Assembly (NCBI RefSeq): GCF_963921235.1
Contig: NC_086108.1
Location: 34,908,001-34,972,000 of the forward strand
Source of the DNA: Mobula hypostoma
Taxonomy: Eukaryota
Length of the DNA stretch: 64,000 nt
Direction of reading: 5' to 3'
Below, piece after piece: positions 599 to 25,243 of the stretch. The notes beneath the pieces were generated by a model. The model did no database searches, was not told the origin of the DNA, and worked only from the letters and a program-made list of their open reading frames with translations. Both the position numbers and the translations under genes were made by a program. Each line of letters opens with the position of its first letter. The stretch's first letter is position 1.

Positions 599-999
599 TG
601 GGTTCACAAGACAGCTTGTTGGAGATCACTTATCGATCAACGGTGCCTCCAGTGCTCTGTGACCCAACCACTCCCAAGCCAGAAGACGTCTGTGTGCCCC
701 AGTTGTGCGATGGATCGGATCTCCCCCTGCCTCTGGGAAGCCCATTAGGTATGGACGACTGCCTGGTAAAACTGGAGTGCTTCCACTTTCTGCGCAATGA
801 AAAGAGTTCCCATGATGAATTCATGGGAAGCCTGGAGCTGATCAAATTCCGAGAGTCAGGGATAGTGTCTGAGTATGAGTCTAACACAGATGAGAGCGAG
901 GAGAGGGACTGCTGGGTAAATGAAGAGTCAGTTCGGATAATGAATGTGATGAAAAGGCAGGATTTGGGAGATTGTCTTGATGATGAAATTGCAGTGTGA
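599..999 (+). CDS. NOS1AP: NOS1AP (CAPON) last coding exon, canonical C-terminus
   Basis: Acceptor ttctcctctttcttccAG ends at 598 (phase 1). The translation (x)GSQDSLLEITYRS...LCDPTTPKPED...GSPLG...CLVKLECF...LELIKFRESGIVSEYESNTDESEERD...LDDEIAV* matches the vertebrate NOS1AP C-terminus, including the PDZ ligand EIAV. TGA at 997-999. Confidence 0.96.
745..754 (+). promoter_or_regulatory. Internal alternative 5' splice donor in the NOS1AP last exon
   Basis: TTAG|GTATGG, cutting after G748 (phase 1) in the Gly codon of GSPL-G; phase-compatible with the C1orf226 acceptor at 18484. Confidence 0.75.
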
Positions 1000-2829
1000 A
1001 AGTTTGTGAATACTTAGGAAAGAATTTTCAATGTGACAGACCGACCCATCCTTATGGTCAGTCAGCTGGGCTGTCTCGTGTAAATAATGGCTAGAAATGT
1101 TCATTCCTGACATTATCCTGTTGATTAAGTGACAGTAATCATTTGACATGACTCACTGTGCAATCTGTTTAAAATCAATGTGTACTTTGCTTCTTTAAAT
1201 ATCAAGTTTCCCAAGTTTAAAAAAATATAAGTGAGGCTTCAGCACATGCTTTAAACTTTGAGAAATGGTAGAAGCTTAGAAATACATGAGGCAGGATACT
1301 TCAGGGATATGATTATAAGGTCTCTTCACACTGAAGTCTTTGAATGGGTACTAAAGAGGTTAGTTGTGCATTGAAGCCACAATCACTGAAAGACCTGAAT
1401 GAAAGTCATTCCATACATCTGCTCCCACACCATTGCTTCTTGATGTTATACCTTACTAGTTAGCGACAGACAGAGATAGAGAGTCTGTAAGAGTATTCAG
1501 TTGTTGTCGTCACCTTCAGAGTAATCTCAGGAGTTGTTGGTTCAGCAAAAGCAGACATTTGAAAAAAAGCTTTAGTCCCAGATTGTAGATGTCTGTGAGA
1601 GCAAATTACCACAAAGCTTGTGCCCATAATAATGCAAGAAGCAATTTACAATTCACAGAGAGATTATATCCATAAAATACTTGCAAGAAATAAAAGAAAA
1701 GATTTCAAAGCATTGTGCAACACAGAAAGGTCTTGCATACTCCAAAATCTCAGACAGAATCCTTTCTAGATCATTGCAGATTAATTATTACGTTAGGGCT
1801 ATGCCTTTGGGGGCAGGGATGTGTAACAAATTGATTTTGCTATGACCATCACTTAAACCCTTGTCATTTGCCCTATTGATGGTCAGAGCTATCTAGAGAG
1901 CACTGCTCTTTGTCTATTGGTTAGGATTTACAGCTTTTTGAGACCCAGAGGAACAGAATACCCTTTCTGTTGTGCTGACATCACACGTACTGCAATGAAT
2001 GTCCTCTGATACAAGATCACTACTGTGTTGCACATTGAAAAATTGTGCTTTTAACACACAAAGGTTTTATTGAGCAAAGTTCCCCTTTAATCTGAAGCTG
2101 TAACAACTGTGGCTTCGTAACAGACAGATAAAAATTTTGTGATCATCAGACGCTGTCAGTTGAACTCGTGACCCCACATAGATCATGCTGCTATCTCTCT
2201 ATAGGTAGTGACAGGTTACCTCGCTGGATGCTTCACACATGTTTGGAGTCAGCTCAAAGCAGATATGGATTTTGACTTGTCATTCAGCTGACGTAATTGT
2301 GTTGGCCTTCATTATTCTTTCTGCAACCGTCTGGGTAAATAAAACAAGTTTGAATCATGAAATGATTTCAGATAAAAACAAAGCAGATAAAAGACAGAGT
2401 GAAATAGAAAATAGTTCAATATATAGATTATAAAAGATAATTATAGGAGGGAGAGAAAAGATAGAATTTTATATAATAGAATATTTTATGGCAGCAATTG
2501 ACTATTTTAATACTGTAAAACCTCTACAAATAGAATATTGGGGATTTTCGTAATTAGTCTGTGTAAACCAAAATGCTTCTTGTTAAAGGTTGGCATAAAG
2601 TGTTCAGGATTTCTTGGATGTATTGCTACTGCAGAGTTGACTCGTGAGTTCAAGCATTTCTGCCACCATATTGTTTTTAATTTCAAGCATGATATGCTTG
2701 TATGATATGGATTAAATCAATGAACAGCATCATGAAACAACAGAAATAAACTTCCTCTCAAAGTGAAAATGTACATATTCCGTGAGAACATGAGTTAATT
2801 CCAAGAACTAGTTTTTGGCTATAGTTTTG

Positions 2830-3150
2830 ATTCCCTCTCTAACATTATCTTCTTGCCCACCCATCGCCTCCCTCTTGTGCTCCTCCACACCCCCCCCCCC
2901 ACACCTTTTCTTTCTTCCATGGCCTTCTGTCTCTTTCACCAATCAATTTCCTAGCTCTTTGCTTCATCCTTCCCCCTTCAGGATTCATCTATCACCTTGT
3001 GTTTCCCTCTCCCCTCCCCACTTTTAAGTCTATTTCTCGTCTCTTTTTTCCAGTCCTGCTGAAGGGTTTCAGCCCGAAACGTCAACTGTACTTTTTTTTC
3101 TATAGATGCTGCCTGGCCTGCAGAGTTCCTCCAGCATAGTGTGTGTATTT
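2830..3150 (+). mobile_element. Penelope-like retroelement 3' end (pseudo-LTR fragment)
   Basis: Pyrimidine-rich stretch followed by cagtcctgctgaagggtttcagcccgaaacgtcaactg...gatgctgcctggcctgcagagttcctccagcat; the same motif recurs at 15570, 41725, 44655 and 61060. Confidence 0.75.
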
Positions 3151-3176
3151 TTTTGGTTATAGTTATCAGTTTAACT

Positions 3177-3257
3177 CAGGGGTTCCCAACCTGGTGTCCG
3201 TGGACCCCTTTGATTAGTGGTGTTGGTCCATGGCATAAAAATGGTTGGGAGCCCATG
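3177..3257. mobile_element. hAT (Charlie-like) MITE, 81 bp
   Basis: TIRs caggggttcccaacc / ggttgggagcccatg; perfect 8-bp TSD GTTTAACT at 3169-3176 and 3258-3265. Confidence 0.9.
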
Positions 3258-4079
3258 GTTTAACTCTATCTTTATGGTTTCCACTACTATCTGATTCATA
3301 ATCACTTCATCTATTGCATTCTACTTCATTGCTCTTTTTTTGTAATTTGGAGTCTGAGCTCATAGTCGAGTGTGATAACATATTTCAAAAACAAAATGAG
3401 AAGCAGATTTGGAGACATCATCCCTGCAGACTTTTATAAGGAAGGAAAACACAAGCCCACTATTTTCAGTCTGCTGTGGTTGCATGTCAGGGCATCCCAT
3501 TTAAGATAGTGTCCTCTCCATGAAGAATATCATTGCTGACCACTTGAGTCTTAGCTCAAGCCCAGTTTTGGTGGTACACAGAGTGTATATGGTTAGCTTT
3601 GGAGTGAGAATAGAACGTCTGATGTTGAAATCAATGGTAGGAGGTAAGGCTTCCCCTAGAATTGAATAGAAGAGTCACTCGAGGATCCAATGAGGCCAAT
3701 GGGATTCCCTCAAGTAATCCTGAGGGGAGAATAGAGGGGTGATTCGAGTTCTAAATTATAGCAGAGGGTAAGGTTTGAAGAATGGCGATGGGTGGGTAAG
3801 AACTGGAGTTTTGTGAGAGTAAAGTTCCTGAAAGGAGAATGCTGTAAGGTGTCACGGTTGTGAAGGAGGACCAAAGGACTTGAGATACCAGAGATAAACA
3901 CAGGAGATGTTTGGAGAGTCAATGAGGAATATGGGCCCCATTAATTACAGCAAATAATCACTGAGCAGAAAATGGCATAGAATAAGGTCACTTGGCCCAC
4001 GATAGATACAACATAGATTGAGAGGCAAATTTGGTCAGGTGGATGCTTGAGACTGCTCAAGGGGAAGGATAACACCACA

Positions 4080-4930
4080 AGACAAAACAGAGTTTGATTG
4101 TAAGGCTATTTTTCAGACTGGAATAGTTATGCAGTGATCCCCATGATTAGTACGGGAAAAAAATGCTAATCTGATGCACATGAAGAAACTGGATGCAATC
4201 TTAAGATCTTCCGATCCCACTTGGAAGTGGGAAAAGTTTAAAAGGATGTGTGGTGGAATAGGCAGACATGTAGGAATGTAATTTCAGGCAGTAAATAATA
4301 TATTTTTAAAAATAAGAACAGGGAAAGGCAATAAGTGTTAAGTGGTATAATTTTAAAGAGTGTGCTAGAAAAGTGGGCGTCCTTCCCTTTAAATCTTTGA
4401 AGGTGACAGAATAGATTTACAAAGCAGTTAATAAAACATACGGGTTCCATGAGCTTAAAAACAGCAACACAGAATGCAGAAGTGAGAATTTAGGGAAAAC
4501 CTATACAAGCCATCAGTTCTTGTCAGCTTGAATATTATGTTAGATTCTGGACAGTACAGCTGAGAATGGATCTAGAAGGGTGAAGAAGTGGTTCACTACA
4601 ATGGCACAGGGATCAGAATTATGTGAATGAGCTGGTGAATTTGGAGATGTTCTCTGTAGACTCAAGAAGGCGAAGAAGAGAATTGAATGTGACAGTTATT
4701 GCATGGGTTTGTGGAGACTTTTAAAAGTAAAATGAACACGGGCTTTGTTTAATCAGCAAGACCACGAGACAATGGAGGTAGATTTAATTGGGGGTTTAAA
4801 AAGGAGTTGGATCAAAAGCTGAAAGAAAGTTGTGGGATGGGCTGCATTGCTTTTGCACTTTCATAAAATTGGCGTGTTTACAAAGAGCCAGCTAGCCTAA
4901 TTCTATGCTGCTTTCCATTATGTAATCCTA
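4080..4930 (+). mobile_element. Old, degraded CR1 LINE fragment (RT C-terminus to 3' UTR)
   Basis: Decayed similarity to the RT-to-tail region of the better preserved CR1 copies in this window; no intact ORF. Confidence 0.55.
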
Positions 4931-5657
4931 TGGGTAAATAAAGACAAATTATTTATAGTGGAGCCAGAGCATAAATTTAAGGTAACTTACAAAAAAAAAG
5001 CAGGGACAACTTTAGAGAGAGAGTTTTTTCTCATGAATGAGCAGATGGAATTTGGAACCCAAGGTGGGGAAGCACTGGGTCACGCCGCAGACCGCCTCTA
5101 CTCTGATGTGACGAGTGCCAGCATTTGGTTAGCACTGCAGTCCCCAGATCTGTAGTCTTTAGAAGTGCCCCTCTGTGGAACTGGAATGTTTGCTGCTCCC
5201 ACAGTCAGGCTCCTGCAGTTTGGGAGTTGGGAGGTTTGGGATCAGCAGAGCTGATGTTTGGGAAGTGGAACAGACTGAGGTGGATGAAGGGGTATGATGG
5301 GGATTGGGGATGGGGTGTTTGCATGTAGTTGGGAGGATTGTGGGTTGGTTGGTGGAAGATCAGGAGTAGAAATTGGTTAGTTGCAGAGCCAGGAGTATGA
5401 GTGGCACAGTAAGTGGGGGGGGGCTGCTTGAATGGGACCCCAAAGCTGGAAAAATCCACAATTTACACTCCTTGCTAGGACTTCAAAGTGCGCAAAGTTT
5501 GGCATTCATGGTTCACAGTCCCTTGTGTCCTCCAAGTTCTCTCACAATGCTCTAACCTCCCCTTCAGTGTTTCGGGGGAAAGATAATACCCCATGAGCCC
5601 AGGTGCAAAACGAACCAGAAGCAGTTATTACTGCATTCATTGGTGGAACAACTGATT

Positions 5658-5712
5658 GTTCGGTTGCATAAGTTCGGTTGCATAACACCAAAACAAGTGT
5701 TATGCAACCGAA
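5658..5712. repeat. Tandem duplication plus perfect 16-bp hairpin
   Basis: gttcggttgcataa occurs twice; ttcggttgcataacac (5673-5688) pairs perfectly with gtgttatgcaaccgaa (5697-5712) around an 8-nt loop. Confidence 0.85.
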
Positions 5713-8508
5713 TGTTGCTAGAGCAATACTACAAATGCAGTTAGCTGTCATGGTGCACGTTAGCATGTTAATGAGTTGATTGCAGTTTGTGGTGTACACC
5801 AACCTCTTAAATCTGACCTCACTACTGTGGCTCAGTTCTTGCTCATCCAGTCCATTCCTGTATTATTCACCCCTCTCAGTTTGGTTCTGTCCTACAATTA
5901 ATGGTGGCAATTTGAGAATCCACAAATCAGTGCGCTTGATGTTTCAGTAATTAAAGTGTGGTCATTTCCTTCATATTATGAGCATCATATGACTGGGGAC
6001 AATTCCTTTAATAAAACGCTTAATAGTGTAAGTTGATTGATATTTTACATAAAGCTGATGTCTTATCTGAACCCATGCTTAATCTATTGTTATTTTAATT
6101 TCACAGCAATGATTTTCTTAAAAAAAAAGATTAACTGTATAAACTGTGCACTGTGCTTTTTTTTTAAATTAAGTGTTTCCCAATGCAAACACAGCACTTT
6201 AATACAGCCATATCTGCGCAGGTTTGGTAATGCGTCACAAACAAACACTGAGTACAAGGAAAGGTTTATCAGCCTCACTGGGCCTAGTGCCGAAAAGGAC
6301 ATTAAATGAGGGTTGGCTGTGTAACATCAGAATCATTAATTCGTAGAGGTGCTATCTTGTACAAAAAGAGTTTCAGATCAGTTTCTTTCAAGGCCACCAG
6401 CTATCTGCAGTTTCTAACAAATTTAGAGCAGCATTTTGCTTGGGTGTTTGTTCTTATCCCAGTCACCCACGTTGAGTCTGAGGGAGGTGAGTGTTGTTTG
6501 TGAAAGGTTATGCTTTGGCTCACAGAAGTGACATTGTAGTGAAGCACTTAAAACAATAAAAGACAACTAATCAACATGAAGTTTCTCAAGTGGCCTCTGA
6601 GAAAATGAGGTGGAATCTGTGACTGATTAAGTTTATTAAGTAAAAAAAAATATGGCTGCAGATGTTCTTGTGTAACATGACTTTGAAAGCACTAAGCAGC
6701 ACTGTTATTGGGAGGCAATATAACACTGACCACAAAAGACTGTATTCTGCTCCCTGTCCTGTACATACAAGCAAGCTCTGTTTCATAGTAATACGTGTTT
6801 ATTCTATAAATGAAACTGTGTAGTGTGGAGAGTATATTTAATATTACCCACTCATTCTTTGCAGAAGCTGTAGAGATATCCAGGGGCTTTGCATGTCTGC
6901 ACCAAGCTCTCTGTTTCGTACATATAAATAAGAAAGTATTTTGTGATGAAAAGAAGTTGTATTTTTTGTACTGGCAGAGAATTGAAACTTAAGTGTAGTT
7001 CTCCAAGTTATCTTCTGCTTTCCAGCCTGTTGCTGAATGTGGACCCTTATTGGACCATCAGCAGCAGGGCACCACCTCTGTTTCCTATTGGATGTCCCTG
7101 CTGCATTCCCTTGAACCTGCGTAATATCGAATAGCTATAAAATATTTCAGTCCATTATTTGTAAGTAAGGTTCAACCAAGTGCGCCGGTTATAAAATGAA
7201 GCACCTGATAAAACTAATGAAGATAATTTAGTTGCAGTTCTTTAATGGACTCTCGCTGGAATGGTAATGAAGAAGCCACTGTCAATGACTAAAGAAAATG
7301 TAGACTCAATACTGCCATCTGTTTTGTGGCTTTGTCTTAAAATCATTTGCAGTTTGAATAGAAGCTACCCGATGATTCATTTTTTTTCCATGGTTCTCCC
7401 TTTTTAAGCGTGGCATTGCTATGTGAGCCCAAGTTTTGATTACACCAGCATACTTAAGCTTTTGTGAATACTGCCTTGTTTACGAATCTGGTCTGTAGCA
7501 GGAAACAATGCAATAGAATGGCAGGGAGATTCAGTGACAGAGCCTAAGGAAAGCAGAAAATATTTTGGTTTAACATAAAGAGATCTGACATGGTATGACC
7601 TAAACTGATTTTTCTGATCTTTGTGCTCAAGAGAAGGAATTCAATCATCAGTGGTTGGCTATTCTTTTGGCATTTTGCATTTAAACTTTGGAAACATATC
7701 TTGCAGTTGCCTGAGGGGTACAGATTGAAGACAAGGAAGGAATTAGTCATTGGGTAGGAGAAGGAGACAAATTGGAGTCATGGGACAAAATGTATTTTAA
7801 CAACAAGAAAGAACTTGATTCAAAGCACAGTACAATCTGAATGAAGAAATTGTAAATTGGAAACTTAGAGACAGCAAAGGCTCAATGACCGAATGGCACC
7901 CCCTCTGCTATAGGTTTTCATGAAGTCTGCTACCATAAAGTCTACAACAGCAGATATCATTCCTTTATTTTACTGTCTTTTCCAAACCTATCACAAAGCA
8001 CCAGAGGCATCCCCAGCCACATGAATATACCCTGGGACAAGGGGTTACAATCCTTCCTTGTCTGGCCTGTTGAGTCCCAGGAGGCTGTGCCTGCTGGCTA
8101 TTCTGTGGCCCAGGAAACAGAAAGAAATATATGGATTCCCTTCATCATCAAAGCTCCAACTCTGCTTGGGCTCTATCTGAAGCTTAGTTACAGTTCCAAT
8201 GCATAACTGCATTTAATTACATTTTTGTTATTATAGCCCCACAGTAGGAGTCTAGGTGCAGCGTATTAGCAAATTTTTCAGACCTGAGTTTCCAGGCAAC
8301 CACAATACTCTCTTTGCCAAATGTCCACTCCGAACAGTTACATGATGCAGCCTCCTGCATTATGGGTCTCAAGTTCCAATTTACTGATGGGAAAACTTAA
8401 ACAACTTCAAAATGGGAGTGAGGGAGTGAGTAACAGTAAGTTCTGGAAGTGTTTGAACAAGACTATTAGTTTGCATTAAATAAATTTAGAGATTTTTGAA
8501 GAAGTGTA

Positions 8509-8912
8509 CAGCATTCGGCAGAAGTCTTAGACACGTAAAAACAAGTTCTGTAAAGCAAAGATGTTTTCAAAAATAATGAAATGAAAAGTTTCTAATTATA
8601 CTATAAAGAGCAGTAAACAGTAAAAAACTAAATCAAATCAATATTTGGTGTGACCACCCTTTGACTTTTAAACTGCATCAATTCTCTTGGGTGCACTGTT
8701 ATGCAGTTTTATAAGGAAATCGGCTGGTAGGTGTTCTAAGCATCTCGGAGAACTTGCCACAGTTCTTCTTCTGACTTTGGCTGTCTCGCTTCCCTGTCCA
8801 GGTAATCCCAGACAGCCTCAATAATCTTGAAATCAGAGCTCTGCGGAGGCCATAACATCTGAAATCATATATTAAAAAAAACTAGCATGCCTAAGACTTT
8901 TGCACAGTACTG
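8509..8912. mobile_element. Tc1-type non-autonomous DNA transposon
   Basis: TA at 8507-8508 and 8913-8914; degenerate left TIR cagcattcggcagaagtcttagacac and right TIR tgcctaagacttttgcacagtactg. Confidence 0.8.
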
Positions 8913-9355
8913 TATTTTGTTCAATGAATATGTGACAAACCGGACAAAGCATCGTGTTATTATATTCTGATAGTAATTATTAAAATTCTGCAAGTATTAA
9001 CTCAATTATTAAACTACAATTATCCCTCAATATTGTCATGTTTAAGCAGTGCCACTTGAACCTACTTCCGTAGTTGCATCTGCACGCAATAACCCACCCC
9101 TTGATTATAATTTTTATCTTTCAAACTTTTAGCTTGTCAATGAGTTGAGACCCAGAGAGCCAGATTCAGGCTGTCCCAGTCTATTCACCATTTAACTCCT
9201 CCAACAATCTGCACGTAACCCAGTTTCTGAAGGTGATCTCACCTGCTCACATTTGCTTCCTGATGATGATGACTCAAGGTTCTCTGTCAATGTGTTGAAT
9301 TGTGACTTCAATCTGCAATCCGCCACCCTTAGTTTTCCCACCTTACAAAAACATA

Positions 9356-9894
9356 CAGCACTGTGCAAAAGTCTCAGACACATAGATATATAGCTAGGGT
9401 GCCTAATATTTTTGCACAGTACTGCAGTAATTTTATGTATTGCGTTGTACTGCTGCCACAAAAAAAACCCTGAAATTCATGACGTGTGAGTAACGATAAA
9501 CCGGATTCTGATATGGGTCTCTATTGTGGACTGAGAGTGGGAAGGAGGCAGGGAGAAGGGAATCATGGTTAGGGAAAGGGGAAGGGAGAGGGGAAAGAGT
9601 GGGAAGCACCAGAGAGATATTCTGTAATGACCAATAAGCCAATAGTCTGGAATCAAATGACCTTGCCTGGTGACTCAGGGCTGGGTGCGTCTGTACCTGC
9701 ACAAACCTCTGCCTTCTCTGCCACCTGTCCCACACCCCTGCTGTAGCACTTCACTTTCTCACCAGTCCCAATATCCTTTGCTCCTGCCAGGTTTACAAAC
9801 GCACTCTCTGCTCCACGTTGACAAATACAGTACTGTGCAAAAGTCTTAGGCACCCCAGCTATATATATGTGCCTAAGACTTTCGCACAATACTC
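9356..9894. mobile_element. Composite Tc1-type element: two ~70-bp hairpin MITEs in inverted orientation around ~400 bp
   Basis: 9356-9424 and 9828-9894 each consist of TIR cagtactgtgcaaaagtcttaggca, a short spacer and the inverted TIR; the two spacers are near reverse complements of each other. Confidence 0.75.
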
Positions 9895-12074
9895 TCTCCC
9901 TTGAAATTATCAATTCACTTTGCATCCACAATTTACAGAACAGTTTCTAAACTGGCACCTCTCTGTGGGTTTTCTTATTTGTCTCCCAAATAGACTAGTT
10001 ATAAGTTGATATTGATTAGTACTCCACCACTAAAAAAGTATTGTTTATTCAGAGAATCATATTCCAGTAAAGTTGAGTTCATTGTATGACAATCAGTCTT
10101 CTATCTTCAAATCCCGAACCACAGCCACCCCTCCGGCCTTTGTCTTTTAGTTCTGTTAATCCCATTGAGTTGGTATTGTTCCTTTGTTTCTGAAAGTGCC
10201 TGTGAATGCTGATGATTATGTTCCTTGGATTGAGAGCGTGCTCTATCAGTGCAAGTCTATGGTGAGTGAAAGGCTGGTTCCACTGAACTGAGTGACGTCA
10301 AGCCCTTCACCAATTATCGCTGTGATACATGCTTTAGGCTCTTTCTTACTAACCCAGTAAGAAGCACATTGGTGTCTTCTAGCCCTGACTCTGTACACTC
10401 AGCTCCCTCTGACAATGTCTTCTTGGTATTTGTAAGTGCACTTACTCTGTTGCTGTCTCCAATCTGCTTTTTGCTTAATAAATCTCCTTTTGTAACTGGC
10501 GTTCTTTCTGTATTCTTGACTCTTTCTTTAAATTAAAAAAAAGTGGTGCCCTATGTCAAGCTTCAAATTAAAAAGCACAGTAATATGTCGTGATTTTGCA
10601 GGTTCAAGCCTTGAACAGTATTCTGGACAGGTATGGGGGAATGTAGTGTGGCTCCTTTGTGTGTATGTGTGTGTCTGTGGGGGTGTGGTGCTGAGCGGTG
10701 AGGAGTAGTATCATTCACGATGAAGGAGAATTATAAGTCTGGGAATCACTGGGACCTCTGCACTGAGATTTGCTGTCTCATGTTTCTGGAGACTCTGAGA
10801 ATGTAGGCTGATGCACACCTGTCACAGTAATCACATCAGATACGCAAATACAATTGAATACAGTTGAAAGTGGCTGTTTAAGTTTCCAGAAATATGTGAA
10901 ACCATCCGAACAGGTTTACCCATTGTAGATTTTTTCAACCATAAAGTGCTGTAATAAACAACTGTGCAATTGAATTTCTAAGTTGTTTTATAGACTGTTT
11001 TCCTGGTTTTCTTAAGCATTCAAGTCTATTATTATCATTCTAATATCATTGATTATAAAAGTACCTTCAATTTATGTGTGAATGACAGGAGAAACACAAC
11101 ATTTATGTCCTGGAAACATAGTTGTTGGAAATGCAGTAAGCAATAACCTCAGTTCAAACCCACATCAAAATTACAGGAGCTGGAGATTCATGACTTCTTG
11201 ACATAGTAGCTAAATCCACACTTAAAGAAAAGGGTCAAAATGTGCAGCACTGACTGCTTTGGAATTGAATGACATCAAAAGAATAATCTGCTCTTTACAG
11301 TTCCAGCACCAAACTGCCCTTGGAGGTACAGTATAGAAGTAGGAAGAGGTGAACAATTCAAATCCATTGAACCTGTGCTCCATTCAGGTTGAGGTCATGG
11401 CTGACCTTGAATTTTCCAGCAGTTACAGGGACCCTTATGGCTTTGTCCTTGCTAACAGCAGAACATCAAAATCTTCCCTCTGGACAGACTGTAGAATATC
11501 ATGTTTACCTCATGATGATGTGGTCCGTCAGGATTGTTGTGCATCGTGCAAAGGAGAGTGACAACGTGTAAAGAATGACCGCATTCATAATGCAGAGGTT
11601 TGAATGGGTGAATGAGGAGAGGTTTGAATGGGTGAACCAGGAAGCTGGTGAATAAGAAAGGTTTTTGTCAGCTGTGAATGCTCAGTGAGAGAGACAGTCT
11701 GGCTTTGTATAAATTTAAAGTGCAGAACCTGCCATACAACTTTAATTTCAAGTCCCATAATCCAGTCCCAATCAGACCAACACCACCACCCCTGCCCCCA
11801 AGTGAATATAATTCCTATATATTGTCCTGAAACTTGAATCAGGGTTGGGTGTTATTATGTGCTTGTTTAGGATTTGCATAATGGCAGTCTGGCAAGTTTT
11901 AAGGAGCTCTTTGAGCATCAGGTGGCCATTTTAGCCAAAACCAGTCCTTACCCAGTCTGGGTTTGTCGTGGCAGCTTAAGCCTAAGTAGTTTAGTTGGCT
12001 ACAAGATGTTAGTCAAGGTTACAGAGAGACAGGGTCTTACAGCACAGAAATAAGTACTAAAGCCCACTATGTCT

Positions 12075-12347
12075 GAGGGGGCATAATTTTAAGGTGCTTT
12101 GGAAGTAAGTACAGAGGGGATATCAGGGGTAAGTTTTTCACAGAGTGGTGGAATGCACTGCTGGCAACGGTGTTGGAGGTAGATATAATAGGGTATTTTA
12201 AGAGACTCTTAGACAGGTACATGGATTAGAAAAATAGAGGACTGTGCAGTGGGGAAATTCTAGGCAGTTTCTAGAGTAGGTTACATGGTCGGTACAAGAT
12301 TCTGGGCCAAAGGGCCTGTAATGTGCTGTAGATTTCTATGTTCTATG
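12075..12347 (+). mobile_element. CR1 LINE 3' end inserted into an older minus-strand CR1 fragment (about 12035-12775)
   Basis: Ends in a ttctatgttctatg tail; same family as 37958-39745 in the opposite orientation; ctatgtc occurs at both junctions. Confidence 0.75.
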
Positions 12348-12779
12348 TCCAAGCCAACCATCAAGTACCCATCTACACTCATCCCATTTGTCACAATTGC
12401 TCCAGAGCCATTTTGGCAATTGAAGTTCTTATCGAGACATTTCTTAAAGATTGTGAGAGTCTCTGCCTCTATCAACCTGTCAGGCATTGTGTTACACATT
12501 TCATTCACCATCTGGGTGAAAATAATTCCTTCTCCAATCTCTTCTAATCCTCCTACACCTTACCCTTTACATTTTTATCCCTTGCCCCAAATGTATATCC
12601 TATGGTTTTAAACACCACAGCATTGGGAAAAGATATCCTATGATTTACCCTATCACATTGCCCCTCACTACCCTCTGCTCCACAGTCTATCCAGTCTCTT
12701 TTCAGCAAAACATTCCATCCTACATAACATCCTGGTAATTTTCCCATGTACCGTCTCCCTTGTAACCACATTCATAGTA

Positions 12780-13257
12780 TGAGGGGTGATTGATAAGTTT
12801 GTGGCCTAAGGTAGAAGGAGTCAATTTTAGAAAACCTAGCACATTTATTTTTCAACATAGTCCCCTCCTACATTTACACACTTAGTCCAGCGGTCGTGGA
12901 GCATACGGATCTTGGACCTCCAGAAAGTGTCCACAGCAGGGGTGATTGATAAGTTCGTGGCCTAAGGTAGAAGATGAATTATTAACTTCAAACTTTCTGC
13001 ATGATCACTGAAAGAGTTGAGATGCATGTGCATGTAACAAGAGCTGTATAACTCATCTCCTCCTACCTTAGGCCACAAACTTATCAATCACCCCTGCTGT
13101 GGACACTTTCTGGAGGTCCAAGATCCGAATGCCCCACGACCACTGGACTAAGTGTGTAAATGTAGGAGGGAGGGGACTACGTTTAAAAATAAATGCGCTA
13201 GGTTTTCTAAAATTGACTCCTTCGACCTTAGACCATGATCCTATCAATCACCCCTCA
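12780..13257. mobile_element. Mariner-type MITE with ~200-bp TIRs and IR/DR architecture
   Basis: TA at 12778-12779 and 13258-13259; ends tgaggggtgattgataag / ctatcaatcacccctca; the terminal ~36-mer is repeated internally at 12938-12973 and mirrored in the right arm. Confidence 0.92.
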
Positions 13258-13589
13258 TATATCTGCCCAAACTTTTTGCCAGACTGCTTTGGTTTTGTGG
13301 AAATGGAAGTGCTGGGTTTGTGTCACTAGGGGTGTTGGGGGACTGTGTGAGAGCAATTGTTCTCGAAGGCCTTTGCTAAGAGGAAGGTCTGAAATGCCAT
13401 ATAGAATTAGGAGTCTTGTATATTGCTGCATCCTATCCAATGGTAGGAGAGCAATGTTTTGTTAGATTAATGAACTGGTGTTGTTTTTAAAGTTCCAGAG
13501 ATGACCCTTGTTCTTGGGTCGATTTAGTGAGAGAGGCATTGAAAGGGTAAGTTTAGAAAATCAGAAACATTTAGAATCTCTCTATGCAC

Positions 13590-14000
13590 ACAACTACCCA
13601 GGTTATAGTAGAGGTCAGATAGGGTAGGACTTTATTTCTTGGAATGTAGGAGACTGAGAGATGATCTTATTAGATGTGTCCAAGATCATGAGGGGCATGG
13701 TCAGTCTTTTTCCCAGGGTTTGAGCACTTGAGATCCAGAGGGTATAAGTTTACGGTGAGAAGGGAAAGATGAAGTAGAAACTTGAGAGGCAGCATTTTTA
13801 CCATGTGTGGTGTGTATGTAGAATAAGCTGCCAGAGAAGGTAGTTGAGGCAGTTTCATTAAAACTTTTAAAGGTTCTTAGACAGACACATTTATTGGAAA
13901 TGTTTCACAGGTTATAAACACCACACTGGCAACTGGCACCGGCTTGGATGGGGCATCCTAATTGGCATGAACCATTTCCGATGAAGGACCAGCTTCCATG
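13590..14000 (+). mobile_element. Degraded CR1 LINE 3' fragment
   Basis: ggactttatttcttggaatgtaggagactgagagatgatctt encodes the GL(Y)SLE.RRLR.DL-like CR1 RT C-terminal motif. Confidence 0.7.
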
Positions 14001-14722
14001 CTTGAACTCAGTTTAAGACATGCATGTTCTTCTTCCTGCTTGGAATTACAGAATAGAGAATTTGTGAACAAAGTGGTATCCTGATGGAGTGGGGCAGGGT
14101 TGAGGGAGGTTAGTCAAGTGGGAGATGACACTAAATGCATAGGGAAGATAACACGAGGCAATGTAGCTGTTTGCAGATGTTCGGCAACATGACCAAATTA
14201 ATATGGGGTAGGTGGCTAATGGATGGAAGATATTTGAACAAGCTTTTTATCAGTCACAGTCACTGCTCAGAGAATTTAAAATAACTGGCAGCCTAAATAC
14301 ATCCTAAGGACTATGTCGTGGCTGTGATTCCTATTACTCAGCAGAAAACCCCACGAAGAGTGGCATTTAATGTCCCAGAACACAAGCAGGAGGAGTCCCA
14401 GACAGATCATTACAGACACTTCTTTATCTGGGATTTTGATTGGCGAATTCTACAGGAATGAGATACCAGAATCTTGGAAGGAATAGGGAATGAGTGGGAT
14501 TAATGCCATTGCGGAATCTCATCAGTGCAGTGTGAGAAGGCAAGTGTCCCAACAAGTCACCTTAGCATCATGAATCACCAAAAATTAGGAGTGGGAAAGA
14601 GACAAGATTTAGTAGTACCTATACTACCTTAAGAGAAAGAAAGGAACAGGATAGACCCCAAGAAATCTACGAGGGTCCAAAGCCAGTGAGACACAAATAT
14701 AAGATATTCACAGGTAAGTCCA

Positions 14723-15020
14723 GAATCAGATTCAGGTGTATTAGCACTGATATATGTCATGAAATGTGTTGTTTTGCTGCCACAAAACAATGCAATACAT
14801 AAAAAAAAATCAGTTACAAGAGAAAATATGTAAATAGTACAAAAGAGGAATAGGTTGTAGGTTCTTGGACTGTTCAGACATCTGATGACGGAGGGAAGAC
14901 AAGGTTCCTAAAATGATGAGTGTGTGTCTTTAGGCTCCTGTATCTCCTTCCTGAAAGTAGTAATGAAAAGAAGGCATGTCTGGATGGTGAGGTTCCTTAA
15001 GGTTGACATCTCTGGATAGA
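14723..15020 (-). mobile_element. Rex/Babar-like LINE 3' fragment
   Basis: Reverse complement of the tail family seen at 28650-29097, with (AGAATC)n-type tail at 14722-14735. Confidence 0.65.
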
Positions 15021-15569
15021 TGCCAATGACTGGCTGAGTTCTTCCAGCATTTCTGTTTCCTGTTTTTGATTTTAAGAAAGATTGGACTATTAATATCCAC
15101 AGCAACATTTCTTTAATGTAACAAACCAGTAAATGTGATATTACAAATTGTAGTTAGTTATAAAGATAGTGGTGGATCCACCAGCATAGATGGACGGAGA
15201 AATTTATTAAACTTGCTTAAAAGTTGACTGGTTTCTATTGATATCCACGATTTGTTGATGTATGAATACACTCTTCACAAATCTGAAATGTAGCAACTGG
15301 GGAGCAAGTTCCTCACCCAGATCTTTCCCTTATTACTACTGTAAGTTTGCTGCGAGAGAATGAAGCAGTCCATCTATTCCCTTGCAGCTTCAACAGATAG
15401 ATGTTATCAGTGAACCAGGCAGTCCCTGTAACAAAGGTAAATTGGCTTATTTACCAATGCGGTTATTTCTGAAAGCAGTTTACTGAGATTACAGATCAGC
15501 AGTAGGAACCTGGAAACTGCTGACAAAGGGTAATCAAAGAAAAAGCTTAAGCAAGCCTCTGTAATTTAA

Positions 15570-15710
15570 ATATGAGAAATTCGGCAGATGCTGCAAGTCC
15601 AAAGCAACATATACAAAGTGCTGAAGGAACTCAGCAGGTCAGGCAGCATCTAAACAGTTGATGTTTCAGGCCGAGACTCTTCTTCAGTACTGGAAAGGAA
15701 GGGGGAAGGT
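15570..15710 (-). mobile_element. Penelope-like terminal fragment
   Basis: gcagatgctg...ggaactcagcaggtcaggcagcatc...gtttcaggccgagactcttcttcagtactgg is the reverse complement of the motif at 3051-3140. Confidence 0.75.
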
Positions 15711-16589
15711 GCCTTTGCAGGAAGGAATTATGTTCCTTATTTGAAAGTAGCATATAATTTTGTAGACGAGCAGGCTGGGATTTTCTCCTGCAGGGACTAT
15801 GATACTGGAAATGATATGACGCAATATTGATTTCAGTTTGACCAAGCATCCAATATCCCAGGGCAATTTCCAAAATCAGATCCGTTTAATTAAATTGTCA
15901 TTTGTAGTATTCCAGCCAGTGTTTATTGGATTTGGATGTGAAATGCCTACCATTGGTTGAAACAACTGGCTACAACAGTGTGGACTGAAAGGCAAAGTTA
16001 AGCAATAGAATTCCAGTCTCTTCCCAAGAAAATAAACTGGTTTACTCATGTAAAAGTACATTACAAGTGATTTCGTTCTTCAGACTACTGTTGCTGTAAG
16101 TGGAGAATGATCAAACTATTTAAGCTAAATTATACATGTGGTTGTGCCGAGAATATTGGATGCATTTTGATATGGTCCATTGTGTCACGAATCTTTCTCA
16201 CCCCTCAAGAAGTATTTTATTATTTCCCCACAGGCCTTTCCAGCCCCCAAAAGAATTGAAAATTTGGGGCAAACTTTTACTGGTTTCTCACCATTGTTTC
16301 TGGGAGCAGAAATGCTTTGCTTCAGCGTCAGGTTGTTGTGGGTTGAATTGCTCATGGAGCAGACTTGATGTCCTTCAGTGTCATCATCGCCTGCCCTCAG
16401 CATGTCACTCTTTCATTATGGAGGGGATGGAGGGTTAAAGAAAAATTGCTGGCAACACTCAGCGGGTCAGGCAGCATCTGTGGAGAGAGAAAAACAGAGT
16501 TAGTGTTTCACATCAGAGAAGTCATTGACCTCACTTGCAACCTCAAGAGGGAATAGAACAATGGTCTGGTTATATTGTTACATAAGTGA

Positions 16590-16885
16590 CATAGCAAGTC
16601 ATATTATTCTGGTGACCCAGGTTGGACCCTGATCTCCAGTGCTCACTATGTAGACTTTGAAACTTCTCCCTGTGACCATGTGGGCTTACTCATGGTGCTC
16701 TGATTTCCTCCCACATCCCAAGGATTTGCTGGTTGCTTGATAATGTAGCCACTGTAACTTACTCCCATTATATCTGGGTGGTAAGAGAATCAAGGTTGTG
16801 TTGGTGGGCGTTTGGGAGGGAGAGGTTACAATGATGTAGGTGGAAGAATGGTTTTACCCGGCATAGACTCACATCGGACTCCTTA
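16590..16885 (+). mobile_element. Degraded V-domain SINE
   Basis: ttctccctgtgaccatgtgggcttactcatggtgctctgatttcctcccacatcccaag core, shared with the SINEs at 23966 and 45378. Confidence 0.65.
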
Positions 16886-17689
16886 TATACTATTAGAAGA
16901 TATAATGCAGTTTAAGAGAAAGCATTTTTCTTCTAAACTAATTATGACACACTTGATCTGGCTGAAGGGTTTTTAAAGATGAGTAACGAGGGGAATAGAA
17001 ATAACTAAACTAGTTCTGAATTTACACTTAAAGAATGGGGAAGTTACTTGTTAACGATAGAGTTTTCCAAATTGTTTTTACTTAATTCTTTTAACATGCC
17101 TACACAAATTCTTGTTTTTGTAATTCTGATCCCATTTCAGATACATTTTTGCAAACTTTGAATGTGGTGATAAACCTTGAAAAGGTGAATATTAAAACAT
17201 CAATCTCTTGGTGCTGATGAACAGATTAAGTATAGGCATTATTGATTAAAATGTCGGTCCTTTTCTTCATAGTCTGCTGAGTGAGATGTCAGTGAATAGG
17301 ATCTGTGTAATCTTAGCCATTGTTATTACTGAGTGTGTATGAATCGATGATTGTTGAATAATCACTTGTTCCTTACTACGTTTTATTTTACTGTACTTTC
17401 CCTGTTGCTTTAATGCTGTCTGAGCTCTTATTTCATAAGGTAAGATCCTTCAGCTATATAATCATATCTAGTAAATAGTTGGAGAAAGTCTTTTTGTTCT
17501 TTCCACTTCCCTCTTCCCAAATATTAGCTCACAACTAATGCTGGATTGTATTGCTTTTAGCTCATAACCACAAGCTTACCAAACCAATACAAAAAGCTTG
17601 GGTCAAAATAAAGTTGCCGCGTTATTTTTGCAGATACCAGCCTAACTCTCAAATTTGATCAGATCCCTGTTGAATTAATTCAATTCATT

Positions 17690-18425
17690 TTGGAGAAATG
17701 TGAGGTGAAACTTCTTGGCAGGAAGAATGAAGAGAGGCTGTGTAGAATGAAGTATACTATTCTAAAAGCGGTGCAGAGGAGAGAGAATGGAGGTGTGTGA
17801 TTATTGAAAGTGACAGCGCAGGTTGAGAAAGGTAATACATTTGTAAATAATTCAGGGCTTTATCGATGGATCTATGTAGTTTAAATCCAGGGAAGTTATG
17901 GTAAACTGTAAAATAAGTCCATCCTCGAATGGAGTATGATTTTCATTGATCACCACATCATAGGAAGGACTTGAAGGCGTTAAAGATTTGCCAGAAGGAC
18001 TTAATGAACAAGGGACTACAGGTACAAGGATAGAGTGGAGAGAATGAAACTGCGTTCTTCAGAGAAGAGGCTGAGTGAAGATTTGATAGAAGTACAGTAT
18101 ATCAAATAATGAAGGCTTTGGACATCATGGACATTAAGATAATGTACCTTTTTGTGGAGTGGTTGAGGTCCAGGGGTCACAGGTATAAAACAAAACAACG
18201 GGAAGAGAATTAAGAGTGACTTGAGGAAATCTTTTTTACAAAATGCATGGTTGAAATCTGGGACAAAAAAAATTCTAAACTGAGAAAATGAGAGATTTTG
18301 GAGTGATTTTCTGCTTGACCTCTGATTATGCCTAATGAGGAAGCTGTAGGCCAGTGTAATTTGATTGGTTTTCATCAGTAAAGTAACAGCTTGTGTTGTT
18401 GTTCCTTGTAATGATCTATGTCATG
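17690..18425 (+). mobile_element. Degraded CR1 LINE RT/3' fragment
   Basis: Decayed EKCEV.H.GR.N and ...RRL..DLIEV motifs; many stop codons. Confidence 0.65.
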
Positions 18426-18483
18426 TAACTGGTTTTTAGATCCCAGCTAATTAGGAATCTTTCCATCTGTTTTTCCTTGGTAG

Positions 18484-18820
18484 TTGACCAAAGCATGTTT
18501 GAGAACTCCAATACCACACCGATGCCAAAACTTCACCACGGCAAAACCGCCACCTCCACAAGAAGTGCCTTGGCCGGGTCATCAATGGCCATTGCTGCCG
18601 AGTCAGCCGGGAGATTGGCCAGTGGCAGCAACAACCACCAGCCCCTTAAGAGTGCTTTCAACCTGGGGAAGGCCATGGGGGCAAAGGTCAATGACTTGCT
18701 GCGAAGAAAAGAGCAGAGCACGGTGACAGATGTCGGTGTGACTGAGGTCAACAAGAATGCGGAGGGGGCCCTTTCAGTGGCGGGAAAGGATGAGAACGGG
18801 CCAGTGACCAACAGTGGGAT
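18484..18820 (+). CDS. C1orf226: C1orf226 orthologue, penultimate coding exon (own ATG at 18495)
   Basis: Acceptor ttttccttggTAG ends at 18483; MFENSNTTPMPKL...NLGKAMGAKVNDLLRRKE...VGVTEVNK matches C1orf226; donor AT|GTGAGT at 18820/18821 (phase 2). Confidence 0.93.
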
Positions 18821-19539
18821 GTGAGTAGGTTCTCAGTTACTTTGCCAACCATGTGAGCAAAATATCTCTTTTAGCAACTAACATTGAGCAGATGTTCTGG
18901 GTGTTCATAGAGTATGTTGACTATTGCAGATACTTGCTCATGTAAATAACATAGAATTTATAGGACAGGATTAGGTCATTTAACCCAGCTGGTTTATGAC
19001 AATGTTTATGCTTCACCCAGGCATATGAATGTAAAATACTTGAGAAACAGACTGTACAGTTCATCCTGGCCCTTTCTATGAATACCCATCAATACTAATC
19101 CCATTTACCAGCCTTTATTCCTTTCTTCCACATGTAATTAAGTGATTTCCCCTTAAACATACTTATAGAATGTCTTTGATAAGAATTGCAACTGTAACCT
19201 GGCTGTAAATAATCCTATATTAAGCAGCCAGGTTGAAATTGGAATATATTTGAAATCCTCTAAAGATGCAACTGTTCCAAGTGTCTCTATGCGTGGAACT
19301 CTATAGATTACAAAGCAGCTGTAAGAGAGGAAAGACCTTTTGAGTCCTAAGTGATCTCAAGGAAAAGTATTCTACACAAGTGTCCTGGGAACAGGAAATG
19401 GCATTAAAACATGTGCAAATATATATATTTACCCATTTTAAAAATGTGTACAAGATGGGTCCAGTTACTCACCTTCAGTCTGCGTGGCTAATGCTCAGCA
19501 GTGTCACCCAGTGGTTGGAGCATGGAAGCACAAGAAGAC

Positions 19540-20311: not shown

Positions 20312-23300
20312 ATCATAGAACCATAGAATCATAGAAACAACAGCACAGAAACAGGCCCTTTGGCCCTTCTTGGCTGTGCCGAACCATTTTCTGCCTAGTC
20401 CCACTGACCTGCACACGGACCATATCCCTCCATACACCTCCCATCCATGTATCTGTCCAATTTATTCTTAAATGTTAAAAAAGAACCCGCATTTACCACC
20501 TCGTCTGGCAGCTCATTCCATACTCCCACCACTCTGTTTGAAGAAGCCCCCCCCAATGTTCCCTTTAAACTTTTCCCCCCTCACCCTTAACCCATGTCCT
20601 CTGGTTTTTTTTTCCCCTTGCCTCAGTGGAAAAAGCCTGCTTGCATTCACTCTATCTATACCCATCATAATTTTATATACCTCTATCAAATCTCCCCTCA
20701 TTCTTCTATGCTCCAGGGAATAAAGTCCTAACCTATTCAACCTTTCTCTGTAACTGAGTTTCTCAAGTCCTGGCAACATCCTTGTAAACCTTCTCTGCAC
20801 TCTTTCAACCTTATTTGTATCCTTTCTGTAATTTGGTGACCAAAACTGAACACAATACTCCAGATTCGGCCTCACCAATGCCTTATACAACCTCATCATA
20901 ACATTCCAGCTCTTATACTCAATACTTCGATTAATAAAGGCCAATGTACCAGAAGCTCTCCTTACAACCCTATCTACCTGTGACGACACTTTTAGGGAAT
21001 TTTGTATCTGTATTCCCAGATCCCTCTGTTCCACTGCACTCCTCAGTGCCTTGCCATTAACCCTGTATGTTCTACGTTGGTTTGTCCTTCCAACGTGCAA
21101 TACCTCACACTTGTCAGTATTAAACTCCATCTGCCATTTTTCAGTCCATTTTTCCAGCTGGTCCAAGTCCCTCTGCAGGCTCTGAAAACCTTCCTCACTG
21201 CCTACTACACCTCCAATCTTTGTATCATCAGCAAACTTGCTGATCCAATTTACCACATTATCATCCAGATCATTGATATAGATGACAAATGACAATGGAC
21301 CCAGCACTGATCCCTGTGGCACACCACTAGTCACAGGCCTCCACTCAGAGAAGCAATTCTCTACCACCACTCTCTGGCTTCTTCCATCGAGCCAATGTCT
21401 AATCCAATTTACCACCTCTCCATGTATACCTAGCGACTGAATTTTCCTAACTAACCTCCCATGCGGGACCTTGTCAAAGGCGTTACTGAAGTCCATGTAG
21501 ACAATATCCACTGCCTTCCCTTCATCCACTTTCCTGGTAACCTCCTCGAAAAACTCCAACAGATTGGCCAAACATGACCTACCACGCACAAAGCCGTGTT
21601 GTCTCTCCCTAATAAGCCCCTGTCTATCCAAATGCTTGTAGATTCTGTCTTTTAGTACTCCCTCCAATAACTTACCTACTACTGACGTTAAACTCACCGG
21701 CCTATAATTTCCCGGATTACTTTTCGATCCTTTTTTAAACAACGGAACAACATGAGCCACTCTCCAATCCTCCGGCACTTCACACGTAGACAGTGACATT
21801 TTAAATATTTCTGCCAGGGCCCCCGCAATTTCAACACTAGTCTCCTTCAAGGTTCGAGGGAACACTCTGTCAGGTCCCGGGGATTTATCCACTTTAATTT
21901 TCCTCAAGACAGCAAGCACCTCCTCCTTTTCAATCTGTACAGTTTCCATGGTCTCACTACTTGATTCCCTCAATTCCATAGATTTCATGCCAGCTTCCTT
22001 AGTAAATACAGACGCAAAAAACCTATTTAAGATCTCCCCCATTTCCTTTGGTTCCGCACAAAGCCGACCACTCTGATCTTCAAGAGGACCAATTTTATCC
22101 CTTACAATCTTTTTGCTCTTAATATACTTGTAAAAGCTCTTTGGATTATCCTTCACTTTGACTGCCAAGGCAACCTCATGTCTTCTTTTAGCCCTCCTGA
22201 TTTCTTTCTTAAGTATTTTCTTGCACTTCTTATACTCCTCAAGCACCTGATTTACCCCTGTTTCCTATACATTTCATACAACTCCCTCTTCTTCTTTATT
22301 AGAGTTGCAATATCCCTTGAGAACCAAGGTTCCTTATTCCTATTCAATTTGTCTTTAATCCTGACAGGAACATACAAACTCTGCACTCTCAAAATTTCCC
22401 CTTTGAAGGTTTCCCACCTACCAATCACATCTTTGCCAGAGAACAATCCCAATCCACGCTTTTTAGATCCTTTCTCATTTCTTCAAATTTGGCCTTCTTC
22501 CAGTTCAGAACCTCAACCCCAGGACCAGATCTATCCTTGTCCATGATCAAATTGAAACTAATGGTGTTATGATCACTGGAACCAAAGTGCTCCCCTACAC
22601 AGACTTCTGTCACTTGCCCTAATTCGTTTCCTAACAGGAGATCCAATATTGCATCCCCTCTAGTTGGTCCCTCTATATATTGATTTAGAAAACTTTCCTG
22701 AACACAATTTACAAACTCTAAACCATCTAGACCCCTAACAGTATGGGAGTCCCAATCAATGTATGGAAAATTAAAATCCCCTACCACCACAACTTTATGT
22801 TTCCTGCAGTTGCCTGCTATCTCTCTGCAGATTTGCTCTTCCAAGTCTCGTTGACTATTGGGTGGTCTGTAATACAATCCCACTAATGTGGCCATACCTT
22901 TCCTGTTTCTCAGCTCCACCCATAAGGACTCAGTAGACAAGCCCTCTAATCTGTCCTGCCTGAGCACTGCTGTAATATTTTCCCTAACAAGCAATGCTAC
23001 TCCCCCACCTTTCATTCCTCTGCCTCGATCACATCTGAAACATCGGAACCCTGGAATATTAAGCTGCCAGTCCTGCCCCTCCTGTAGCCAAGTTTCACTA
23101 ATTGCTACAACATCATAATTCCACGTGTCAATCCACGCCCTCATCCGCCTTCCCCGCAATACTCCTAGCATTGAAATATATACACATCAGAAGATTTTTA
23201 CCACCACTCACATCCTTTCTATCAGCGGATTTGCTTAAACTTTCAACATCATTTATTTTCACCCCAGCCACACTGTCAGCTCTGGCACTCTGGTTCCCAT

Positions 23301-23328
23301 CCCCCTGCAAATCTAGTTTAAAGCCTCC
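20312..23328 (-). mobile_element. CR1 LINE, 5'-truncated near the end of ORF1, with near-complete ORF2 (APE endonuclease plus RT)
   Basis: ORF pieces give YFNARSI, VAISETWL, VVVGDFNFP, LDLLL and SSDH (endonuclease) and NYRPVSLTS, QHGF, MDFSNAFDKVPH, GVPQGSVLGP and FADDTK (RT); about 3 frameshifts (near 23140, 22445, 22255); (TTCTATGA/G)n tail at 20312-20336. Confidence 0.96.
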
Positions 23329-23539
23329 TCGGTAGAAAATTATTCTTAGTCCTATCTCAGATAGGCTGGACATGGTGGTCAATTCTGGAGACTCCCAACT
23401 CACTGACTATTTTTCTAACTGCACTTTAAGAATACACTCTCAAGAAATCTAGTGTCGAATGTGAGCTTCTCAGGATGTATGTTGGGAAATCTGCCCTCCA
23501 AATCTGCAACAGATTTTACTTGCTGCTGAAGGAAAGGGA

Positions 23540-23780
23540 AAAGGGTAAGAGATTTTAGGGAAGCTATTTCACCCAGAGAGTGGTAAAGATCTTAGACGTA
23601 TTGCCTGAAAGAGGGGCAGCTGACAGCGTTTAAGAAGTGTCGTAACTAGCATTTAAATTGCCAAAACATGGAGGGCTACAAGCCAAGTGCTGGTAAATGG
23701 GATTAAAATAGATGAGTCAGCATGGGTGTGATAGACCAAATGCCCTGCTTCTGTGCTATGTGACTGTATGAATCCATGAC
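23540..23780 (+). mobile_element. Degraded CR1 3' end
   Basis: tttcacccagagagtggtaa (F.QRVV motif) followed by a CR1 3' UTR-like tail. Confidence 0.6.
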
Positions 23781-23965
23781 TCAGTTGAGAGGAATTCCTG
23801 CTATCAAGAAATGATAGTTAATTTTATTTTAAATTTTGAATTGAGTTCATTGTCTTCAAGTGTGCTAAGCATTTTTATTATCAATATTTTTAGTTGTAAT
23901 CTGTATTTGAATTACTGATTGTTAATTTTTCTTAGTGCTTCTGAAGGACTGATGAGAAACAAAGT

Positions 23966-24230
23966 GGGGTGGCACGGTAGCGTAGTGGTTAGCGCAGCGC
24001 TTCACAGCACCAGCGACCCAGGTTCACTTCCCCCCACTGCCTGTAAGAAGCTTGTACATTCTCCCTATGACTGCGTGGGTTTCCTCTGGGTGCTCCTCCT
24101 GTTTCCACCCATGGCTCAAGGTGTACTGGTTGGAAGGTTAATTGGACATTGTAAGTTGTCCCATGATTAGGTTATGATTAAATCGAGGGATTGCTGAGCG
24201 ACATGAGGGCCTATTCCATGTTGTATCAAA
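23966..24230 (+). mobile_element. tRNA-derived V-domain SINE
   Basis: Pol III box A tagcgtagtgg (23978-23988), box B ggttcacttcc (24021-24031), V-domain core tgcgtgggtttcctctgggtgctcc. Confidence 0.8.
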
Positions 24231-24681
24231 AAGTACATTTAAAATCCATGATTTGCCACCTAAGGTTGGGTTGTAGCTTACTTAGCTAGTCATCAAAGAT
24301 CTTTCTTCTGGTGTTCTGTGTCATGACTTTTCTTTGCCATTGCATTGTCGTTGGCATATTCTCACCAGGAGATCTGCAGAAGGTAACAGTGTGAATGGGC
24401 AGCCTGCTTCCAGCGGAAAGTTTTGGCCTATTGACTCCCAAACTGTGATAAGGAAACATCACTGGAGCTGCAGGTGGTCAGGATCATTTATGAGTTTGAG
24501 TCATTCCCAATGTTTGAATCAAAGCCAAAAATGAAACTTGTCGCTTGTAAATTGCGTCAAGGTTCTTAAATCAGACACAAATGGGATTGAGAGAAATGTA
24601 TTCAGCTTCCATGTATCTTGCTTTTTTCTGAGTCACATTAAAGTTGCCAACCTTACTAACCTGTACCTCCTTTACTTCTAG

Positions 24682-25243
24682 TCAGAGCCTCTCAGAGTCA
24701 TTCCCTCGGCTGGAGCCACCTCCACCGACAGCCAAAAAGAGGACTTCCCGGGCCCTGAAGACCACTCAGGACATGATGATCTCATCAGTGCCAGTGGTTC
24801 ATTGTGGAGACATCTCTGACCTGTCCATCAACTCCATCTCCGATGGAGCAGCACAGCGAAATAACCAAGCACTGGAAAGCAAGGCCGGCAATGGGGAAAC
24901 CTCCCCCTTCAGCACTGCGGAGAACCTGACTCCTAACCTCATCGCTGAAGCCAAATTGGAGAACAAACACTGCGGCATGCCGGAGGGTACCGAGGACCTT
25001 GCCAAGCCTGCCCTTTCCGTACCTGATCTATTGAATAAAGAGCCTGTGGATGTCAAGCTGAAGCCAGCTGGCCCGGAGAAAAGGATGGCCTCCTCCCCAT
25101 GCCCCGATAAGGCTTGCTTGCGGATCAGCATCAGTGAAGATGATCTTTTAGGGGGCGACTGTGAAAGCTCTGGAGTGCTGAGGCAAAGATGTTCAAGTGT
25201 TGAAAATGAAGAACATCATCCAGACTTGCTGTCATTCGATTAG
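24682..25243 (+). CDS. C1orf226: C1orf226 orthologue, last coding exon
   Basis: Acceptor cctcctttacttctAG ends at 24681, phase 2 matching the upstream donor (AT+T = Ile); ESFPRLEPPPPTAKKRTSRALKTTQDMMISS...LSVPDLL...ASSP...HPDLLSFD* matches C1orf226; TAG at 25241-25243. Confidence 0.94.

Follow-up and report, generated by a model that had tools for sequence, protein, structure and literature searches.

Splicing from the last exon of NOS1AP into C1orf226 in a ray and the likely origin of the switch before the jawed vertebrates

The last exon of NOS1AP in the ray Mobula hypostoma contains an internal 5' splice site that is joined, in frame, to the coding exons of C1orf226, which lie 17.5 kb downstream. 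We analysed a window of 64,000 nucleotides (nt) of this genome (assembly GCF_963921235.1, contig NC_086108.1, forward-strand positions 34,908,001 to 34,972,000; coordinates below are those of the window, and all exons and splice sites are on its plus strand), in which the donor after position 748 is spliced to the acceptor at 18484. This splice is real in the ray, and it is orthologous to the NOS1AP-C1orf226 isoform described in mammals. It is highly likely that the C1orf226 exons serve mainly as alternative terminal exons of NOS1AP and that this arrangement is older than the jawed vertebrates. The isoform itself is known and has been annotated automatically; new here are the apparent age of the switch and a conserved, putative clathrin-box-like motif at the end of the alternative tail.

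A search with the sequence of C1orf226 exon 1 listed 21 sequencing runs, four of which were aligned to positions 480-19100 of the window. Organism A supplied X1 and X2, both from a single study; X5 came from organism B and X18 from organism G, making three studies and three related organisms in all. A preliminary description of this DNA, made from the letters alone, had named a search for the junction as a check of the predicted splice. The exact joint 748|18484 (reported as 745>18481, with the cut at +3) is present in transcript-type contigs of all four runs, bounded by GT..AG and skipping 17,735 nt (15 of 90 joints shown). Runs X1, X5 and X18 each contain a single unbranched contig that spans 599-745 and 18481-18820 and whose match ends exactly at the exon borders; the contigs do not differ from the window in organism A and show seven differences in exon 1 for organisms B and G. 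Run X2 contains a spliced contig with about 30 nt before the donor together with a read-through contig (719-1043), both starting near 719, which is the pattern expected of a fork at the donor. The depths of these two contigs, 64.5 and 2.8, respectively, are not an isoform ratio, as contigs give presence and not level. Both isoforms are also found in the public automatic annotation of a Mobula ray: XP_062919902.1 and XP_062919903.1 (protein isoforms X1 and X2, distinct from the runs of the same name) are identical to the translation of the window over 49/49, 111/111 and 186/186 residues, and protein isoforms X3 and X4 represent the canonical form, with XP_062919904.1 matching the canonical tail over 82/82 residues. 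Protein isoforms X3 and X4, together with the conservation of the 83-aa frame, speak for a canonical read-through mRNA.

Several aspects of these data weigh against a genuine splice switch. The four runs were picked for containing C1orf226 exon 1 and their RNA type is only a guess, none of them being recorded as RNA; the organism A runs may underlie the RefSeq models, hence these two lines are not independent; and the read-through contig of X2 is no deeper than the intronic contigs there and could come from pre-mRNA or DNA. The join might be noise or an artefact, produced by leaky termination, a processed pseudogene, an assembly chimera or the spread of annotation from one genome to another. 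Such carry-over is in fact seen here: 23 of 120 models hold both tails, nearly all with EIAV joined directly to MFEN without a stop; these models (within P0160-P0253; many birds and some mammals) were set aside as a likely concatenation artefact spread by homology. An artefactual join is nevertheless largely refuted, and we regard it as extremely improbable, given that the GT..AG joint is the same to the base in three organisms from three studies, the contigs showing no differences in organism A and species-specific ones in B and G. In addition, fused proteins of about 730 amino acids (aa) are derived from Logan contigs of 3-5 kb, and kidney disease results when the spliced isoform alone is removed, by an allele in mouse or by a variant of the donor in human (PMC12660744).

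The join itself is open and reads GSPL-V-DQS-MFEN, with a new tail of 299 aa ending in HPDLLSFD that replaces the 83-aa tail ending in EIAV. The donor TTAG|GTATGG after 748, the phase-1 acceptor 11 nt upstream of the C1orf226 ATG with no intervening stop, and a tail of about 300 aa with this end had all been read correctly from the sequence in the preliminary description. The frame runs on through both C1orf226 coding exons; the second joint, 18820|24682, lies outside the aligned stretch and rests on the identical RefSeq protein. The spliced isoform loses the PDZ-binding C-terminus but keeps the PTB domain, as seen in the RefSeq model, from which all NOS1AP exons upstream of 599, being outside the window, were taken.

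The last NOS1AP exon (exon 10) begins at a phase-1 acceptor (CAG, border 598|599). Its first 150 nt (599-748) are common to both isoforms, and contigs align to it from 599 with at most one difference. The internal donor TAG|GTATGG (746-754, cut 748|749) splits a glycine codon in phase 1 and corresponds to human c.1258+1G at G420. With a generic donor matrix, this donor has the top score among the 26 GTs in 600-999 and falls within the top 2.3% of the 3,455 GTs of the window, similar to the constitutive donor of C1orf226 exon 1 (top 1.9%). Read-through at this site yields the canonical tail (749-999), with the PDZ-binding end DDEIAV and the stop codon TGA at 997-999. The intron of the spliced isoform (749-18483) ends in a branch-point-like CTAAT at 18447, so named from the consensus only, followed by a pyrimidine tract and the AG (18447-18483). 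Among the 22 AGs scanned around the ATG, none is preceded by a tract richer in pyrimidines (15/19) than that of the acceptor, TAG|18484. The 11-nt linker (18484-18494) is nominally the 5' untranslated region (UTR) of stand-alone C1orf226 and encodes (V)DQS in the spliced isoform. Coding exon 1 of C1orf226 (18484-18820, ATG at 18495) covers positions 1-97 of DUF4628 (Pfam PF15429, E 2.7e-26), and the contigs end exactly at its 3' border. Coding exon 2 (24682-25243, stop at 25241-25243) covers positions 108-269 of the same domain (E 3e-48), and its last sense codons (25226-25240) encode the terminal LLSFD. Beyond this exon, collinearity would place the end of the contigs of both X1 and X2 near 26850; no AATAAA or ATTAAA is present just upstream of that point, the nearest being at 26245 and 27284.

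A homologue search with exon 1 gave 407 matches, of which 120 were listed (the counts of homologues given below are among the matches listed). The standard junction is found in 92 of the 120 listed homologues, from chimaera to mammals, and the PTB motif in 89. The linker signature xD[QH]S is present in each of the 109 listed homologues that have at least four residues before the C1orf226 Met. Carriers of the junction among cartilaginous fishes include Carcharodon, Cetorhinus, Chiloscyllium, Mustelus, Heterodontus, Heptranchias, Stegostoma, Callorhinchus and Amblyraja; others are sturgeons, gar, bowfin, many teleosts, a newt, turtles, a marsupial and rodents. On the canonical side, SP[LIV]G is kept in 119 of 120 listed proteins, and EIAV forms the C-terminus of 93 of 120. 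The residue after the donor glycine is R in 111, M in seven and I in one of the 119, which fits an A at donor position +3, as judged from protein with the codons not seen. This glycine is residue 420 of a 506-aa primate protein, 153 nt into the exon, the same as in the mammalian isoform with a donor at GSPL|G that the preliminary description had named; its suggestion to align the donor codon and the VDxS linker across jawed vertebrates is borne out by the conservation of both among the listed homologues, including sharks, rays and chimaera. A few models depart from this pattern. In the Rhincodon model the junction is another one, and for Narcine and Polypterus the search gave only separate models of the two genes; both points weigh against the alternative-ending reading. 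In two models (P0002 from a stingray and P0062 from a salmonid) exon 10 is left out, so that C1orf226 exon 1 directly follows exon 9 (..S|IDQS), and a skate model (P0135, 460 aa, named C1orf226 homolog) has a different N-terminus and lacks most of the N-terminal part of NOS1AP while showing the same junction. An exon 9 to C1orf226 exon 1 join, with the acceptor equivalent to 18484, would be allowed by the phases in the window as well.

The preliminary description had dated the two-tail switch to before the split of sharks and bony fishes. Its conservation across jawed vertebrates agrees with this, but the age was underestimated, as lamprey gene models show both tails. A profile of 15 stand-alone tails was run on 1.84 billion representatives and gave 86 matches, 40 of which were read in whole or in part and 12 named. 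A weak full-length match (E 7e-6) was XP_078721434.1 of Lampetra fluviatilis, which clusters with Lethenteron and Petromyzon models and has a PTB domain and a coiled coil, followed by LRLA|VDQSLFEN and then by the second of the conserved blocks of the tail. Spliced-type models with LRLA|VDQSLFEN are thus found in three lamprey genera. In the Lampetra planeri model XP_078459235.1, LRLA|GT is read through into a different tail (SLEM..ESGI..acidic stretch), for which a profile built from 92 canonical tails gives 12.7 bits, compared with a maximum of 5.4 among 1,000 shuffles (342 scored). The presence of both tails and of the switch point in these models suggests that all three likely arose before jawless and jawed vertebrates diverged, more than 500 million years ago. 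Against so early an origin, the evidence from lampreys is limited to gene models, each tail is seen in a different species, and the alternative tail of lampreys is without one conserved block and without the LLSFE end, terminating instead in ALGLD. The 12 named profile matches (of 86) are all vertebrate and no invertebrate tail was recognised among them, which does not by itself show absence from tunicates, amphioxus or hagfish. No report of the splice outside mammals was found in the literature searched, which covered neither subscription papers nor theses, among them the original work in rat.

The nominal 5' UTR of C1orf226 is nonetheless conserved at the protein level. In an alignment of 61 sequences, column identity is 0.99 for the 11-nt linker, whereas the PTB domain reaches 0.94 and the tail as a whole 0.60. 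In 25 of 236 sequences (lampreys, several killifish-type fishes, electric eel, jerboa and arowana), Leu or Ile takes the place of the stand-alone start Met, and the loss of the start codon while the linker stays favours the alternative-tail reading. Among proteins with both PTB domain and tail, xD[QH]S is kept in 188 of 211, the remaining 23 being both-tail concatenations. These observations support the idea, put forward in the preliminary description, that C1orf226 is ancestrally a C-terminus of NOS1AP. The novelty implied there was overestimated, as RefSeq already models the fused ray isoform and C1orf226 has been named as a splice isoform of NOS1AP (PMC11607453); an origin as early as that indicated here was not found reported in the literature searched.

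The same data bear on another explanation, namely that NOS1AP and C1orf226 are two independent genes with a conserved read-through (conjoined) transcript, C1orf226 having its own promoter and function and the fusion being secondary. It draws on the 22 of 120 listed homologues that are stand-alone, starting within 40 aa of the C1orf226 Met, and on the retention of the ATG at 18495 in 211 of the 236 sequences. In spiny-rayed fishes and a caecilian, short forms have their own first coding exon spliced to the same VDQS acceptor (P0068, P0083, P0094, P0112, P0113, P0116 and P0099), and mammals have an annotated C1orf226 transcript, NM_001085375, that starts from its own non-coding first exon (PMC12660744). 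We consider independent genes distinctly unlikely in view of a supposed UTR that is conserved at the protein level like the PTB domain, the loss of the start Met in several lineages, and the single unbranched contig that enters exon 1 from NOS1AP in three of the four runs; a weaker point is that no CpG island is present between the genes (observed/expected CpG at most 0.37 per kb in 1001-18000). We prefer to regard the C1orf226 exons as alternative endings of NOS1AP, with short stand-alone products probably made from internal promoters in some lineages as a secondary use.

In mammals, the intergenic isoform NOS1AP-C1orf226 (Nos1ap-Gm7694), known as NOS1APc, is dominant in kidney (70-95% of junction reads) and minor in brain, and its product, which binds SCRIB, VANGL1 and KANK1, colocalises with nephrin and is found at cell-cell junctions (PMC12660744, PMC11607453); the last 13 aa of the canonical form bind nNOS (PMC12660744). 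In the ray, use of donor 748|749 would compete with read-through and polyadenylation of exon 10. Internal-donor use would remove the nNOS-binding PDZ end and append the long tail, such that a cell may make either an nNOS-binding adaptor or a PTB and coiled-coil adaptor whose tail is probably disordered and carries a few conserved short motifs. By analogy with mammals, the spliced form would act in podocytes, at junctions and in cell polarity, with the read-through form prevailing in brain. With donor and linker conserved to sharks and probably to lampreys, the spliced form appears to be an ancestral core product, orthologues of C1orf226 are better annotated as exons of NOS1AP, and fish or frog models appear suitable for studying this form.

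Conservation within the alternative tail is concentrated in short blocks, NLGKA..VNDLLRRK, FPRL.PPP..KKR..RAL.TTQDMMISS, SVPDL and HPDLLSF[DE], which offer specific targets for the question, raised in PMC12660744, of what the alternative tail interacts with. An amphipathic helix in the first block was considered and rejected, as its moment (0.45) is no higher than that of another tail segment (0.44). The terminal LLSFD is a putative motif that fits the clathrin-box consensus L-Phi-x-Phi-[DE] (PMC5694535), and the C-terminal pattern, as a pattern match only, is found in 110 of the 120 listed homologues. The ray tail also contains four DLL triplets, and the PTB domain (PF00640) is recognised with E 1.3e-33 in P0122. 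In the AlphaFold model of the fused protein the mean predicted local distance difference test score (pLDDT) is 45, with low confidence even in the PTB domain, which provides weak support for disorder. The general plan, an N-terminal PTB domain, a coiled coil and a long low-confidence tail with a clathrin-box-pattern end, resembles that of PTB clathrin adaptors such as GULP/CED-6, a group to which ARH and Dab2 also belong. In an Atlas feature search GULP1 clusters came next after invertebrate CAPON-like proteins (score 0.82), which is a lead only, and Atlas structure matches all had template modelling (TM) scores of at most 0.32. The ray tail differs from these adaptors in lacking the AP-2-binding motifs DPF, FxDxF and WxxF as well as an acidic dileucine, and the locations given for NOS1APc in PMC11607453 and PMC12660744 are cell-cell junctions and podocytes. 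No link of NOS1AP or C1orf226 to clathrin was found in the literature searched, and clathrin and AP-2 terms are absent from the supplement text of PMC11607453, which possibly does not include the proteomics tables. It is possible rather than probable that C1orf226 was never primarily a gene and that the switch has, since the first vertebrates, toggled between an nNOS-binding and a clathrin-binding PTB adaptor, LLSF[DE] being a working clathrin box. If so, NOS1AP nephrotic syndrome would in part arise from faulty endocytic sorting in the slit diaphragm.

The window also contains sequences of mobile elements. An element of the long interspersed nuclear element (LINE) type lies on the minus strand in the C1orf226 intron (20513-23186), with an open endonuclease frame of 253 aa (PF03372) and a reverse transcriptase frame of 583 aa (PF00078). 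Fragments of a DDE_3 transposase, which we take to be of the Tc1 type, are found at 63180-63933 on the plus strand.

The known system closest to the ray arrangement is mammalian NOS1APc, and the description of C1orf226 as a splice isoform of NOS1AP dates from 2024 (PMC11607453). In human, the disease variant c.1258+1G>C sits at the G420 donor and had at first been classed as benign, having been interpreted against the canonical transcript (PMC12660744); the accessible text of the same paper states conservation of G420 only as far as Xenopus and was found to hold no zebrafish, shark or vertebrate-wide statement. The RefSeq models of Mobula are identical to the window over every exon part compared; they are automatic and carry no description of the switch or its age. 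The ray differs from mammals in having 150 rather than 153 nt of exon 10 before the donor, and its tail is about 37-49% identical to mammalian tails, depending on the exon. In the following features the two systems agree: the donor lies in the same glycine codon of exon 10, the acceptor just upstream of the C1orf226 ATG, the linker is in frame, two coding exons follow downstream, and the PDZ-binding end is lost.

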